NCBI GenBank assembly: GCA_900617105.1
Contig: UYFQ01000728.1
Location: 1-51,784 of the forward strand
Length of the DNA: 51,784 nucleotides
DNA from: Hydrurus foetidus
Taxonomy: Eukaryota
Reading direction: 5' to 3'
The translations under genes and the position numbers were made by a program. A model generated the notes under the pieces. It was not told where the DNA came from. It did not search any database and was given only the letters and a program-made list of their open reading frames with translations. Shown one piece after another: positions 3,991-41,600 of the stretch (its first letter is position 1; each line of letters starts with the position of its first letter).

Positions 3991-6082
3991 ATGTGTCATG
4001 AAGCGGGAAGGTTCTTTCATTATATAAGCTCTCTTCTCATAATTCAATTCAATCAATTGTCTCGAAGTCGCGCAATCGACTTTGGGAACAGCTCCAACTT
4101 CACTTTCCGTGGGCCACCGCCGCCATTCGAAGAAACCATTCGAGTCTCTCAACTCTCAATGATCGCATCTGCTGACATTCTCATAATTCTATGCTATTCA
4201 GTCACCTGCAGTAGCTTCCAACACAGCCTTGTGGAAGGCGTGCATTTGCCATCCGATATCAGCTTCTCAGTCCTGTACTTCCCAAATTTGACAGCAGAAG
4301 CAGCTGTCATGACAGCACGATACATTGCTACCTACGCTCCCCTGATGCAGAATCTTAGCAGTATAAACAAGTCCGATCTAGTGGCCAGTGCAAATGATGA
4401 ATACACCACAAGCACGATCTGTCCAGTATTTCCTCTCGACTACCTGCACTTCGGCTACAGCCGAAATTATCTCAACGCTTTCATCATGGCATCCTTGACA
4501 TCGGGCCCAAGGATAACCTTTGAGATTGATCGCTTCGGCAAACGCGGGTCGACCTACTTCTCTCGATTCAGCGCATGCTTCACTTTCATGGCAGCAGAAG
4601 CAGCCATCTCAACCGCACGATTCTTTGCCATTCACGCTTCCGAGATAAAGACCCTCATCGGTATGAACAAGTCTGATGCAGTAACCGGACAAAACGTCGA
4701 TGAATTTGTGACTGCTGGATACGCCAAAACCGCGTTCAGTCCAGCATTTCCTCAGGACTGCATGCACTTCGGCTATGGCAAAAACAATAACAACCTTCCG
4801 GACACGTTCAAAACCAACCCTTTCTTCATGGCTTCCTTGAGATCGGGCCCAGGCATGACCTTTGAGATCGATCCCTTCGGCAAACGAGGATCGACATACT
4901 TCTCACGATTCATCGCATGTCTTGATCCCACGGTGCTTCGCGTGAGTGCCACATTCGATTATTCCATGACGATAGTAATTGACCTCAAAGTTTTCAACTC
5001 ATCGGATTCCAATAATGAGATGACTGGCTTTACTAAAGAGACCGCTGCCACTCTCCTTCTCCATCAATCCTCCTTCTACGCCCAAAATATTCACACACTC
5101 ATTCATGTAAGCAATTAGAGGCGCCCTTGCCACGCGGTCATATATTTACTTAATTGCCCCGAAAATTCCTAAACTGATGTTCCTAATCTGATGAAATTAC
5201 CTTCGCCATTCTTTATAGGTGTTCCACGATATCATGGGCTCAGCTATGGTCAATGCGACCGTGAATACATCACTTCACTCCTGGTCGACATCAAACATGT
5301 TTAAACGACAATTCGAACATGAGCAACACGAGGATATGAATTTCGATCAAGTGAAGTTCTTCAGAGAAACCACCCCGTTTCTAACTGGCTACAACACTCA
5401 AAATGCGACTCAACTTCTGGCGCTCAAGAAAGCGATGCTTCATGAATGGGCAACATACAAAACAGCGGATCAATTCGTCAGAAGGTTCCTGCTCGCTAAC
5501 GTCTCGCCGTATTCCTTTGGTATTATTGGTGAGATGTTTTTCAAACAGGCTGCCTTGATACCGTCCCACACATCTGCAATGGAAAAACAATACAAAAAGG
5601 ACCCCATGTACACAACAATCAACAACAATCTCAAGGCACTACTCCAACTCACTGGCGACAGCGTGTCTTCCATCGACAACATGACGTCTTGGCTGGCTAT
5701 GATGTCTATCACTCGTGTTCTGCACGGCTACACATTCAGCATGACCAGATTCTCGATGAAACACACTTTCTTACCCATCAACGCTTCTGAGTTTGAAAAG
5801 TTCACGACTCGTGACGCCACTCCAATGCGCGTCACACCAGGGACTGTTCTGGGCATTAATGAAGACCTTTACGTCTCCCCGTATTCTCCCCCTGTAACCA
5901 ACCCTTTCGACATCAATCGAGTTCAACTATCCTATGACTCAAAGATTGCGGCACTGAGAAATTACTACCAGAAGAGTGTCATAAAGGGCACCTCTGTTTT
6001 TAAGATCTTCGCATGGGCTCTATCCGACCACGGCCCGAACATCCTTAGCGGAAAACATCTTACCCTCATCGCCTACTCTTAG
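3991..6082 (+). CDS. Hypothetical protein with an internal ~100-aa duplication; two ORFs joined by a phase-0 intron (5107-5218); start uncertain
   Basis: A GTAAGC donor at 5107 and TTTATAG acceptor at 5218 join ...NIHTLIH to VFHDIMG... in frame. The unit AEAA..TAR...NKSD...FP.D..HFGY...MASL.SGP..TFEID.FGKRGSTYFSRF.AC occurs twice. Confidence 0.6.
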
Positions 6083-36106: not shown

Positions 36107-36973
36107 TCAAAACATTTGACCGGTGCGCTCCAGAAAATTTTTCTTCGCTATTCCCCAGGCTATTTTTGCCTCTGGCTCACGATCAGTTACTGAAACCACG
36201 TCATACTCAGTAGTCCCCTTGACGAGGATTTCCCATTTGCCAGGATACACTCTTGTCAGCCACGCACCAAGTCGACTACCTCCAACTGCGATGGGACTCA
36301 GGAACACAGCCTGCACCGCTGACGAGTAAAACTCTTTGGTGACTTTTGTGAGGGCAGGGTAAATGAACCAAGGATAGTAGCCATTTCGTAGTCTGTCCAA
36401 ATTCCCATTAATAATTATCATCGGTGCGCCTCTATCCAGCTTAGGGATATTTATCCATTCATCGACGCTGAATCCAGGATTGATAATTATCATCAATTGA
36501 GGGATGGCCGCAGGTTTATTCTCCATGAGCCCCTCTATGGATGTCATGGTGAAAGGTAAGTCCTCCCCCCATTTCTCGCGGGCTAGAAAGCACTCTTTCT
36601 TGTCAGGAAATAGGACCCACAAATCTTTGCCATACGAGGAGAAAGAATTGATGAATTGCCGCGTAAACTGACGATTTGTGTCCAGAGTCTCTCCTAGACT
36701 AATATCGTTTTTTCTGTTCGCTGGAAACTCTACCTCGATAAGTTTAGATCCCTCGTCAATGCAAAGCTTACAACTATCGACTGATTTCCTCAGAATGGCG
36801 GAGAGGTAATTATTCTGATCACTATTAAATAGAAATCCTGTCTTGCCCTCCAGCGACATGTGTAAGATTGGCTGACGAGTTGAATGCTGAAGAACGCGGT
36901 AACTTCGTCCAAAGCTGGCCATAAGTAGCAGACAGGTAACGCAATTGACTAGAGATAATGAGAGGCGCGCCAT
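36107..36973 (-). CDS. DUF1995-domain protein, probably plastid-targeted (bipartite presequence), intronless
   Basis: Motifs LIEVEFP, VLFPD..E and IIINGNLDRLRNGYYP are typical of DUF1995. The N-terminus MARLSLSLVNCVTCLLLMASFGRS-YRV...LHMS resembles a signal peptide plus transit peptide. ATG at 36973 is preferred to the LTR-derived ATG at 37234. Confidence 0.8.
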   Translation of the reverse strand: MARLSLSLVNCVTCLLLMASFGRSYRVLQHSTRQPILHMSLEGKTGFLFNSDQNNYLSAILRKSVDSCKLCIDEGSKLIEVEFPANRKNDISLGETLDTNRQFTRQFINSFSSYGKDLWVLFPDKKECFLAREKWGEDLPFTMTSIEGLMENKPAAIPQLMIIINPGFSVDEWINIPKLDRGAPMIIINGNLDRLRNGYYPWFIYPALTKVTKEFYSSAVQAVFLSPIAVGGSRLGAWLTRVYPGKWEILVKGTTEYDVVSVTDREPEAKIAWGIAKKNFLERTGQMF

Positions 36974-37111
36974 CCTGTAGACTTCCTCAATTACAATGAA
37001 CCTTTGCTCTTCGAAAGAGCAATATTGTGGATGCACAGTTGCTACTGACCACCTTCGTATGCTGTATGTAGGTTGCAAACTGCAAACTCTGAGAAATAAG
37101 CAAGAACCGTG

Positions 37112-37477
37112 TGTCGGAATAACTGTGTGATAAGTAACCGTATAAGTTATTACGTATGTACATTTAATGACGTTTCGTACGTCGTGTGCCACGTGGAGGT
37201 CGCTACTCCACCGGTCCAAGTTCTTTTTCCACATCCAGGAACATTAAAAATGAAAGTACACCATGTTTGACTGTGCGGGACAGATCGAATTTCTCGACTG
37301 TCTCCATGAACGATGTAAGCTACGTTGCATTGTTAATTACTTTAAACTCCAAACCAAACCCACTTTCGCCTTGAGCCCGGGAAAGTGACCAGAAGCCAGG
37401 TTGAAGTTGCAGAAGGAGAGCGGACCCAGGAAGGATTTAGTTGCCCATTCAGTGGAACTAAAGCGTGGACTCCGACA
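37112..37477 (+). repeat. 5' LTR (366 bp)
   Basis: TGTCGGA...TCCGACA 7-bp terminal inverted repeat; no differences from the 3' LTR found by eye. Confidence 0.97.
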
Positions 37478-37488
37478 TAATTAACAAT
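37478..37488 (+). promoter_or_regulatory. Non-tRNA primer-binding site TAATTAACAAT, complementary to LTR 37329-37339
   Basis: Directly abuts the terminal CA of the LTR, lacks TGG, and is the exact reverse complement of ATTGTTAATTA in the LTR. Confidence 0.75.
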
Positions 37489-37502
37489 TGCACTTTCATC
37501 CT

Positions 37503-38615
37503 ATGAAAGGAAAAGTTGCAGACAAGAAACCTTCTGGCAAGGGCGGCCCTGCCAACGGCGGCAGAGGCAACGCCGGCCGTGGAGGCTTCAAGCCTCCACC
37601 CCGAACAGGAACGGTAGCGGCCATAGGCGCGTTCCTGGATTTGGGGAAGGAAATGAACCATGGTAGCGTAAGCGCATGGATGAGAAAATTTAGAGAGTAT
37701 ACGCGGACCAACTATAAATCAGACATTTGTGACATATTTGGGAACGAAGGCATACCGGGAGAATATCCCGTCCTAGTGGCTCCTGCCGATATAGCGGAGG
37801 ACGCGAACTTCATGCAAATTGCAAGATGGAAGAAAACACTGGACCTCTACGACAAGAAAATGACGGAGCTAGAAACCGACAAGAAGCAGGTCTTCGGCCT
37901 GATGCTAGGTCAGATAAGCGAGACGTCTAAGGCGACTATCCGCGAAACTGAACCGGGCCTGGCCGCGATCACAGCGGAGAACCCGCTGTTATTCATGAGA
38001 GCCATCATACTCACCCACCTGTCCGACCCGAAGCTGGGAGCAGACGAGAACCTACTACGGGTAAGGATGGCCTATGAGACCGTAAGAATGGAGCCCAACG
38101 ATGTCCTTAAGTACTACTACCAGCGCTTCAAAGCCCTGAAGACTGGATACGATGACACCAAACGGGTCCTAGGGATCGAGCCGGTGTATACACCGGCCAT
38201 GACCATACACGAGAATCTTCTCACGGGTATGAAGTTCATGAAGGGACTCAACTCGGGGTACAAACAATTCGTAGAATACTACGAGCATGGGATCAAGGAC
38301 TGGCCAGATTCGCTAGATGAAGCGTACTTAGAGATGGCTAAGGTGACTCCCAGAAAACCGGCCGGAACGGGCCCACCTAATCAATCTAATATCTTTGCAG
38401 TGAAAACAGCTGGAGGAGATAAATCAGTAGGTAGAGAGAAGGGAAAGTCAACTGGGGATGCGGGAAAAGGGAAGGGTGCACGTCCGGGATACGGCACCCG
38501 ACCCGGGATCTGTAATTCATGTAAGGAACCGGGACACTATGCATATGAGTGCACTGCCCAGGAGAGCCAATCGGCTGCATCAGCAGCCAGTGGACACTCG
38601 AAATCGGTAAACTAA
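37503..38615 (+). CDS. gag: Copia Gag with CCHC zinc knuckle
   Basis: ATG 37503; G/K/R-rich N-terminus; capsid-like core (FGLMLGQISETSK...YYQRFK); CNSCKEPGHYAYEC; TAA 38613-38615. Confidence 0.92.
   Translation: MKGKVADKKPSGKGGPANGGRGNAGRGGFKPPPRTGTVAAIGAFLDLGKEMNHGSVSAWMRKFREYTRTNYKSDICDIFGNEGIPGEYPVLVAPADIAEDANFMQIARWKKTLDLYDKKMTELETDKKQVFGLMLGQISETSKATIRETEPGLAAITAENPLLFMRAIILTHLSDPKLGADENLLRVRMAYETVRMEPNDVLKYYYQRFKALKTGYDDTKRVLGIEPVYTPAMTIHENLLTGMKFMKGLNSGYKQFVEYYEHGIKDWPDSLDEAYLEMAKVTPRKPAGTGPPNQSNIFAVKTAGGDKSVGREKGKSTGDAGKGKGARPGYGTRPGICNSCKEPGHYAYECTAQESQSAASAASGHSKSVN
38606..38612 (+). promoter_or_regulatory. Candidate -1 ribosomal frameshift heptamer G_GTA_AAC just before the gag stop
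   Basis: X_XXY_YYZ phase in the gag frame (TCG GTA AAC TAA); a -1 shift enters the pol frame (LNTLHYSS...). Confidence 0.6.
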
Positions 38616-41600
38616 ACACATTACATTATTCCTCACCCACATACGCACCCCCACACACACACACACCCGTACATGCACTTACCCCCACCGGTCCACGTTT
38701 GGCTGACTCCACTAGCGGGGTTGAATCGTGCGACCGTATTGTATTTAGTGCAAACACTTGTAATATATACAATGCAATTAAAACAAAACACATACTGCTT
38801 GATACTTGTGCTGGTGAGTCGGTATTCAACGACTCATCCCTGTTATACAATGTAAAATCTGCCACCACTCCCATGATTGTTAGCGGGGTGAATCCGAAAG
38901 GAAAACCGCTAATAGTCAAGGAGCGTGGCGAATCAGCGTTTGGCAATGTATATTATAGCCCTGACTGTGCTGGTAACATACTGTCTTTCGGTAATGCTGT
39001 ACGTGACTGTACTGATGTTATGTACTTACATGACCATGACTGTTACATAGTACAGGATGTCACTGGTAATTATTTCTACAGATTCTCACGAGATGAATCT
39101 ATGAATATATACCAATGCAACCTTGACACTATGGTGACTAAATGCATGCCACTATTAGTTACAACCGTAGAAGAGAAAAAGAAGAAGTATACAGTTAGAG
39201 AGGTCAGAGACGCTTCGCTAGCTAGAGACTATCAGCGTAGGCTAGGTTACGCTAGCGCAGCACAAACTATCAAGTTGATATCCCAAGGGAATTTGACTAA
39301 CAGTAAAGTGACTGCGCGAGACGTACACCGAGCAGTAGACATATGGGGACCAGACATTGGATCCCTAAAGGGTAAAACTACTAGCCACCAAGCTAAGCTA
39401 GAAGAGAAGTTACCTCTTATAGGCACAGAGTATAAGACAGAACAGATCATGTACATTGATATAATGTTTGTCAACCAAATACCTTACCTAGTATCAGTTG
39501 TACAGCCTATTGAATTCCTGTTTGTTAGCAAGCTAGCCAAGAGAGATCACAAAACACTATGGAATAGTCTAAAGACAGCCATAGCAGGCATGACTAAGTA
39601 TCACTTTAAGATTAAGATGATAAGAGTAGACGGTGAAGGCGCCATAAACACCGAATGGTTCCACAACAAAGTCAGTCTCAGAGGTATCATTTTAGATGTT
39701 ACCGGAGCCGGGGAAGCCGTAGCCGTAGTGGAGCGTAAGATTAGACATATCAAAGAGAGAGTCAGATCCGTTATTAACACGCTGCCATTTGAATTAAGCG
39801 AGAAACTTGAAGTGTGGTTAGTTAAGTATGCAGTCAGTAGAATTGTATTAGCTCCCACACGTAACTCTATAGATCACATCAGCCCACGAGAGAAACTCAG
39901 CGGTAGAAAGATTGATGTAGATAAAGAGATTAAGCACGGTTTTGGTGATTATGTCCAAGTGCACAATGATGTTATTGACAACTCTACCAAACCAAGAACA
40001 GCCGGGGCCATAGCACTTATGAGCTCCGGCAATCTAGAAGGTTCATGGTACTACATGCTGTTAGCAAATGAACAAATTGTTAAACGTACAAAAGCAACCG
40101 TACTACCCATGCCTAACGAAGTTGTGTTACACTTAAACAGTCTGGCAGCGAATAGAAAAACTGCCAATGTTAAACAACCTGTATTCGAGAATAGCCACAC
40201 CGTATTCGATGATGATGATGATGTTGACGATGACCCTGAATACATTGGTGACATTGAGTATGATACCATTGACGAATCTGCTGACGCAGAAGAAACCGAT
40301 GAAATCACTGAAGACAACCAACACGTTGACAATGACACATACCCTGAGCCACAACAATATATGTACGATGAAAACAACCCACCGACATTAGATGAGTATG
40401 TAGATGACACACTATATACGAATGACACCACTCATACTAATGACGAACTATATTACGATAACCACACACATGATGATGCGAATCAATACGAAACACATGA
40501 GCGTTCACCCAGATACGATCAAGCACTAATTGATGATATATTTGGAATAAGTGATGATGAAAATGACTTTGACGATGTAACTGCGCAACCCGAAGTATTC
40601 TCACCACCTTCAGTAATAGAAACAGAATATGATTTACCAGACAGTGTTTCACCTTTGTTGCGTAGAAGTGGTAGAAACCACCAACTAGGTAAATGGAATA
40701 GGAAATATGTTGGTAGCATATTTTATAAAAACACATCCCTATATAAGATGACTGTTAGTGAAGGAAATAATAAGTTAGGGGTGCTAGCTGTTGATTCCAT
40801 TACATCCGAATTAAAACAAATGTGCGATAAGGATGTATGGGAAGGTGTAACTTATGAATCACTTACACCTAAACAAAAACGCACCATCATACCGAGTAGT
40901 ATGTTTCTAAAAGAAAAGTACACGGCTGATGGTATGTTTGAAAAACTGAAATCTAGACTAGTAGCCGGTGGGCACCTACAAGATAGAGATGTTTATAACA
41001 ATGGTGCATCCCCTACTGCTAGCACATCCAGCGTATTTATACTAACTGCGATTGCTGCTAAACAGAACCGTGCTATTGCCACTGTTGATTTCCCTGGTGC
41101 ATTTCTGAATAGCGATATGCCGCTGACCGGTGACCATGTTGTATACATGCGATTAAATAAACAACTGACTGCTGCACTAATACAAATAGACGCAACATAT
41201 AACAAATACATAAATAAGAATGGAACATGTATTGTGAAACTAAAGAAAGCTTTATATGGATGTGTAGAATCTGCTAAGCTATGGTATGACAAACTATCCA
41301 GCGATTTGAATAAACTCAATTATACTGCAAACGAATACGACATCTGCGTATTCAATAGAACCGAAACTGATAACACACAAACCTCATTAGTAATTCATGT
41401 TGACGACATGATTATTACTGCTTCAACCGAATCCTGCGTGGATGAGGTTATAAAGCAGATTGAAACTATATACCCCGGTCTAACCAAACACCGCGGCAAA
41501 GTATTAAATTACATAGGTATGACCTTCGACTTCAATAACGAAGGAGTAGTCAAGATGACGATGGAAGGGTTTGTAAAAGATCTCATTGAGGGGTGCACGG

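Follow-up and report, generated by a model that had tools for sequence, protein, structure and literature searches.

Two related retrotransposons in the window analysed here (the whole stretch of 51,784 nt) carry, in the R/U5 part of their LTRs, a short predicted stem-loop whose loop is identical and whose stems are not, which raises the question of whether this hairpin is a selected RNA element and, if so, what recognises it. Element 1 (37112-43488, + strand) is an intact Ty1/copia LTR retrotransposon of the RVT_2 type. It has two identical TG...CA LTRs of 366 nt (37112..37477 and 43123..43488, both +), a 5-bp target-site duplication flanking the element (37107..37111 and again 43489-43493, +), and gag and pol in between. 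The gag ORF (37503..38615, +) encodes a CCHC zinc knuckle, with a Pfam match slightly below the curated cut-off. The pol ORF (38549..42469, +) lies in another frame and is open over 1306 aa; it contains an RVT_2 reverse transcriptase (PF07727, E 3.1e-22), with RT and RNase H located in its C-terminal half, and its domain order is PR-IN-RT-RH as judged by eye from motifs, the integrase having no Pfam match at E 0.001. Pol overlaps gag in different frames at 38549-38615 (+) and is probably reached via frameshifting. A short polypurine-tract-like run (43114..43120, +) lies 2 nt upstream of the 3' LTR, and no tRNA genes were found within the window. Membership of the Tf1/sushi group, which has a Ty3/gypsy chromovirus pol, was ruled out, since the pol of element 1 is of the copia RVT_2 type. 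LTR contigs with variants numbered 315 in sequencing run X1 and 342 in run X3, and these hundreds of variant contigs in two runs indicated that the family has many copies. The DNA of element 1 occurred chiefly in sequencing runs from freshwater biofilm, sediment and water, and the only organism-named homologues of the neighbouring DUF1995 gene were proteins of Ochromonadaceae and Mallomonas (50-53% identity). The window is eukaryotic, and these two findings make a freshwater alga of chrysophyte-like type its likely source.

On the minus strand, element 2 represents the 3' end of a copy from a sister subfamily; its pol is frameshifted in RNase H and continues past the window end, and its 3' LTR (49837..50203, -) is 83% identical to the LTR of element 1. 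Between the two subfamilies, U3 (37131-37320, +) is 89% identical, versus 56% for the R/U5 stretch that bears the hairpin. U3 includes identical runs of 35, 30, 27, 23 and 21 nt, which probably serve as promoter or integration signals. Two adjacent hairpins at the U3 end (37273-37334, +; also in the LTR of element 2) folded with z -4.9 against shuffles, and the differences between elements 1 and 2 fell mostly in their loops. The second of these hairpins reaches 6 nt into the putative primer described below and could mask the primer's 3' copy; a U3 hairpin in this position was present in elements 1 and 2 and was not general among relatives. Between pol and the 3' LTR, both elements contain imperfect 75-90-nt repeats with a C-rich sense strand (42330-42830, +; 50540-50840, -).

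The hairpin in question is predicted in the 5' LTR of element 1 at 37361..37387 (+), with 7 bp, a bulge and 2 bp below a loop at 37371-37378, and an identical copy lies in the 3' LTR (43372..43398, +). In element 2 it is predicted at 49929..49955 (-), with 5 bp, a bulge and 4 bp below a loop at 49945-49938. The sequence and coordinates originally given for both hairpins were confirmed, as was the spacing between hairpin and putative self-primer in element 1, estimated beforehand at about 20 nt and measured as 21 nt after the primer 3' end (37339). In the context of the 5' RNA, the nine stem pairs of element 1 were predicted with probabilities of 0.92-0.98 and those of the element 2 core (49955-49929) with 0.81-0.96; the two outer pairs tested from the proposed GCA/TGC extension of element 2 had a probability of only 0.05. 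In element 1, the hairpin was the sole confidently predicted one in the R/U5 region. The opposite strand also folded into a mirror hairpin under RNA parameters.

That the stems differ and still pair, as the original prediction had it, was borne out by the comparison of the two elements. Although 10 of the 19 arm positions differ, all nine pairs are kept: four changed on both sides, one changed on one side (A-U to G-U), four stayed the same and none was broken, while the single bulge shifted by two pairs down the stem. When 10 random changes were placed in the 19 arm positions (5000 trials for each element), the loop was closed with at least eight pairs in only 0.42% and 0.22% of trials, figures whose significance is somewhat overstated by the post hoc choice of the site. 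The folding of the hairpin region was unremarkable against shuffles (z -0.03 and +1.65), and the case for the hairpin therefore rests on covariation. Contigs from natural populations supplied further arm variants, including a change of the closing pair from U-A to C-G at high depth and a change from G-U to G-C. Some population copies were mosaic, combining the outer stem of element 2 with the inner stem of element 1, as seen in variant rows and loose contig ends. The arm variants derive mostly from the single split between elements 1 and 2 and do not represent independent events. Taken as sequence evidence, the four two-sided changes, the null rate of 0.2-0.4% and the population variants support the view that a leader hairpin in R/U5 is selected and maintained by compensatory change.

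Two further features of the leader were noted. The heptamer of the hairpin 5' arm recurs at 37491-37497, and a separate predicted hairpin contains the gag start codon (37491-37509, +). A leader switch was considered and found no support: the alternative pairing would cost about 12 kcal/mol, and 28 leaders had no excess complementarity (5.71 versus 5.75).

The loop had been described as invariant, and this held for elements 1 and 2 and failed in the contigs of natural populations, where variants occurred; its conservation was, moreover, limited to the family. Two sequences do not suffice to establish invariance, and their shared loop is not shown to be special: permutation gave P=0.16 for an identical run of at least eight letters within 37340-37398, and elsewhere the two LTRs share 11 identical runs that are longer. 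At loop position 2, five contigs of run X1 (with depths adding up to 402 of 5980) and one contig of run X3 carried C in place of U, and one contig of run X4 had a different sequence over the loop and the 5' arm. Among 115 contigs of four runs aligned to the hairpin of element 2, listed variants affected 1 of 8 loop positions versus 9 of 19 arm positions, the variant table leaving out letters close to contig ends. Multi-read consensus strings from loose ends (agreement 0.63-0.9) hinted at more loop variants; they come from mixed contigs and were excluded from the counts. Roughly, then, the loop appears more conserved than the stem within this one family, though not invariant.

Across families, no such conservation was found. 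The loop motif had no plus-strand match among 86 loci of relatives, and in the R/U5 regions of 28 relatives the best match had at least two mismatches; in RNase H these 86 loci reach about 60% identity at most, the closest relatives (65-83% in RT-RNase H) standing outside the set. A covariance model built from two sequences found only the three window copies, its next match (E 0.047) being without the hairpin. Viral contigs contained no LTR 20-mer and no relative of pol, and 121 loop-plus-anchor matches in them showed no similarity to the LTRs in blastn and were taken as chance. A search of Rfam returned no family in 36900-37700, apart from one weak minus-strand match (E 1.2). Patterns of hammerhead, twister, pistol and hatchet ribozymes were absent, the only find being an HDV-loop-like 7-mer on the antisense strand. 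With regard to a pseudoknot or long-range partner, the RNA of element 1 held no exact complement of the loop; the best candidate partner (-9.6 kcal/mol, a raw energy) lay in gag.

The hairpin lies in a leader that appears to be organised around self-priming. The putative self-primer (37329..37339, +) starts at an initiator-like C|A and would represent the first 11 nt of the RNA, and the primer-binding site (37478..37488, +), directly after the LTR end, is its perfect complement. The resulting 11-bp duplex has counterparts in relatives. A perfect duplex of at least 13 bp right after CA was found in 19 of 86 loci, whereas each of five shuffles gave 0-1 of 86 and the reverse strand gave 7. One of at least 10 bp was present in 26 of the 52 relatives able to hold the junction, a rough criterion. 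After removal of 3 cases inside pol and 1 duplicate from the 36 loci with at least 10 bp, 32 duplexes remained; 25 of these start at, or 1 nt past, C|A, as that of element 1 likewise does, with CA making up 5.6% of dinucleotides; since the loci are related to one another, a binomial P for this excess is indicative at most. C|A is the usual initiator pattern for a transcription start. The duplex is retained in relatives with different letters, 30 of the 32 primer-site 10-mers being distinct, and its length ranges from 10 to 18 bp. The self-primer that had been assumed from the start is thus well supported by the 11-bp complement and the covarying duplexes of relatives, and element 1 is probably self-primed, with a Tf1-like signature in the copia superfamily. 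In Tf1, the primer-binding site pairs with the first 11 bases, which RNase H cuts off, a cut that requires RNA structure as well as RNase H, according to the available text of PMC7175516. Self-priming was predicted earlier for plant TAR copia elements, as stated in the part of PMC6317226 consulted. No description of self-priming or of this hairpin in algal copia elements was found in the literature searched, which left most subscription journals outside. Eight copia-like loci (L079-L086) were located in bacterial genome bins and are most likely eukaryotic contamination.

Adjoining the primer-binding site is a predicted, U5-IR-like U5 terminal stem (37421..37474, +), for which z against shuffles was -0.4 in element 1 and -4.0 in the counterpart of element 2 (49895-49840). 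Folding was compared over 30 R/U5 regions, those of 28 relatives and of the two window elements; 4 further loci, with a duplex unlike an LTR junction, had been dropped. The U5 terminal stem reached z < -1.65 in 12 of these 30, and no loop was common to them. Repeated loops specific to a family occurred in 7 of 30 versus 3.6 expected, a weak excess that was striking only in L001, in which 11 loop pairs share a 5-mer; in L036, two UUAUU loops sit on different stems. The R/U5 region of L001 (about 5357-5606) has seven predicted hairpins, each with an AGG(A)-type loop or a nearby motif of this type, and in the folding model they look like an array of repeated binding sites.

What reads the hairpin can be proposed tentatively. 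Our preferred explanation, which we hold with less than even confidence, is that the Gag protein encoded by the element itself would bind it, as a site specific to the family, during packaging and RNA folding. Transcription would start at 37329; the first 11 nt would fold onto the primer-binding site and then be cut off as in Tf1, priming DNA synthesis; and the 138 nt looped out between primer and primer-binding site would fold into the hairpin and the U5 stem. The exposed loop would be read by the zinc-knuckle region of Gag, and loop and Gag would drift together, which would leave the loop conserved inside the family but not between families. The choice of Gag is an obvious one because a family-specific exposed loop on a kept stem fits a co-evolving protein of the element, and the Gag of element 1 does carry a CCHC knuckle. 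The available portions of PMC4974528 and PMC6844567 describe binding of Ty1 Gag to structured sites within the first ~500 nt. Against recognition by Gag, the accessible text of PMC4974528 places the major Ty1 packaging determinants further in (nt 237-380) and reports no demonstrable packaging role for the Ty1 5' pseudoknot. The hairpin sits in R/U5, upstream of the primer-binding site, and if it lies within R it would also occur at the RNA 3' end, which counts against this explanation. The chance level of loop identity (P=0.16), the loop variants, the weak enrichment of repeated loops and folding no better than that of shuffles point in the same direction.

Several of these observations would be expected if the hairpin were a structural spacer, in which the stem alone is selected, compacting R/U5 and stopping its own bases from pairing wrongly with primer, primer-binding site or gag start, and the loops are alike through common descent and recombination between subfamilies. 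This is a real, if rather unlikely, possibility. It accords with the permutation result for the loop, with loop variants that include one wholly different sequence, with relatives that lack a shared loop and with mosaic copies joining the outer stem of element 2 to the inner stem of element 1; the consulted part of a review states that in Tf1 the loop sequence does not affect function (PMC5445492). A stem selected alone does not account so readily for a loop that stayed unchanged while 10 of 19 arm positions differ, and 7 of the 8 loop positions have no listed variant. A pure chance fold in a variable stretch would fit the unremarkable z values (-0.03 and +1.65), the comparison of just two full sequences and the post hoc site, yet the null of 0.2-0.4% and the preservation of 9 of 9 pairs despite 10 arm differences make the absence of selection highly improbable.

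Other explanations assign the hairpin to reverse transcription or dimerisation. As a TAR-like helper of strand transfer, the hairpin would lie in R, and the mirror hairpin in the strong-stop DNA of the minus strand would dock loop-to-loop on the 3' R copy, a common loop allowing template switching between subfamilies. The opposite strand does fold the mirror hairpin under RNA parameters, strong-stop DNA would, by our inference, end 21 nt from the hairpin after primer removal, and mosaic hairpins exist; however, a donor loop complements its acceptor with any sequence, so that a fixed loop is not needed by itself, and we regard this as unlikely. It is distinctly unlikely, in our estimate, that the loop is a shared dock for Gag or RT/RNase H that sets up tRNA-independent priming while co-packaged subfamilies swap strong-stop DNA. 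If true, this would be a first for a self-primed copia lineage, a cis-element additional to the primer duplex, and it could be tested directly in element 1, which is intact. It had also been suggested that the hairpin positions the cleavage of the primer, in the sense of placing RT/RNase H for a cut after nt 11. The hairpin is the first stable structure past the primer, and the Tf1 cut needs both RNA structure and RNase H (PMC7175516, in the text available), but over 31 R/U5 regions (the 30 above with L003 added) the first confidently paired base lay anywhere from 1 to 47 nt past the primer end, at 22 nt in element 1 versus 10 nt in element 2. Such variable spacing makes it unlikely that the hairpin measures out the cleavage site as a fixed ruler, and the U5 terminal stem, with z < -1.65 in 12 of 30 regions, is a more general candidate; a role in the priming machinery is accordingly disfavoured and appears quite improbable. 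Finally, a kissing hairpin that initiates dimerisation is suggested by the confident R/U5 hairpins of L006, L029 and L051, whose loops are palindromic as in dimer-initiation sites, by a 6-nt GC palindrome over the loop end and 3' arm of element 1 (37376-37381) and by the dimerisation of Ty1 via 5'UTR palindromes (PMC6844567, in the portion consulted). This role is nevertheless very improbable for the hairpin of elements 1 and 2: the loop is not self-complementary, its self-duplex reaches only -1.3 kcal/mol, and the palindrome is missing in element 2.

By itself, the hairpin adds one more selected stem-loop to those of retroelement leaders, and handles for Gag are an already known kind of signal. 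Its value lies in the test system that element 1 provides, with identical LTRs, open reading frames and a Tf1-like self-priming signature in copia. In the accessible parts of the literature searched, self-priming has been shown experimentally for Tf1 only and is a prediction for the plant TAR elements. Mutants of element 1 in the hairpin, in the U5 stem and in the primer duplex would reveal which RNA parts a self-primed copia element requires.

Retroviral psi stem-loops and TAR are structured elements in the 5' leaders of LTR retroelements that Gag binds. The hairpin resembles them, and also the 5' pseudoknot and Gag sites of Ty1 as far as these are described in the available text of PMC4974528 and PMC6844567, in its location less than ~60 nt from the start of the inferred genomic RNA, its compensatory changes and its exposed, more conserved loop. 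It differs from these leaders in having no sequence likeness to them, a non-palindromic loop of 8 nt, no pseudoknot partner that we found and a function that is so far putative; furthermore, it sits inside a loop closed by a self-primer, not beside a tRNA primer. With the self-primed Ty3/gypsy elements Tf1 and Tf2 of Schizosaccharomyces pombe, Tj1 and the Tf1/sushi group, element 1 shares a primer-binding site after the LTR that complements the inferred first 11 nt of the RNA and a predicted U5 stem adjoining it. Unlike Tf1, Tf2 and Tj1, it is a Ty1/copia element with RVT_2 and, judged from motifs, the integrase before RT; its relatives have duplexes of 10-18 bp, and cleavage is putative. The plant TAR lineage (Houba, Osr-1) is likewise of the copia superfamily and has a complement of at least 10 bp between LTR and primer-binding site, whereas the host here is probably a chrysophyte-like alga and the part of PMC6317226 consulted describes no leader hairpin for TAR. 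The fungal GalEa elements, with their Conserved Hairpin Site, are similar in having no tRNA-type primer site and an AT-rich, partly palindromic sequence just past the LTR (PMC5445492, in the portion consulted). As described there, the GalEa hairpin follows the LTR and is without an LTR complement, whereas here it is the LTR that contains the complement, and the hairpin is inside R/U5.
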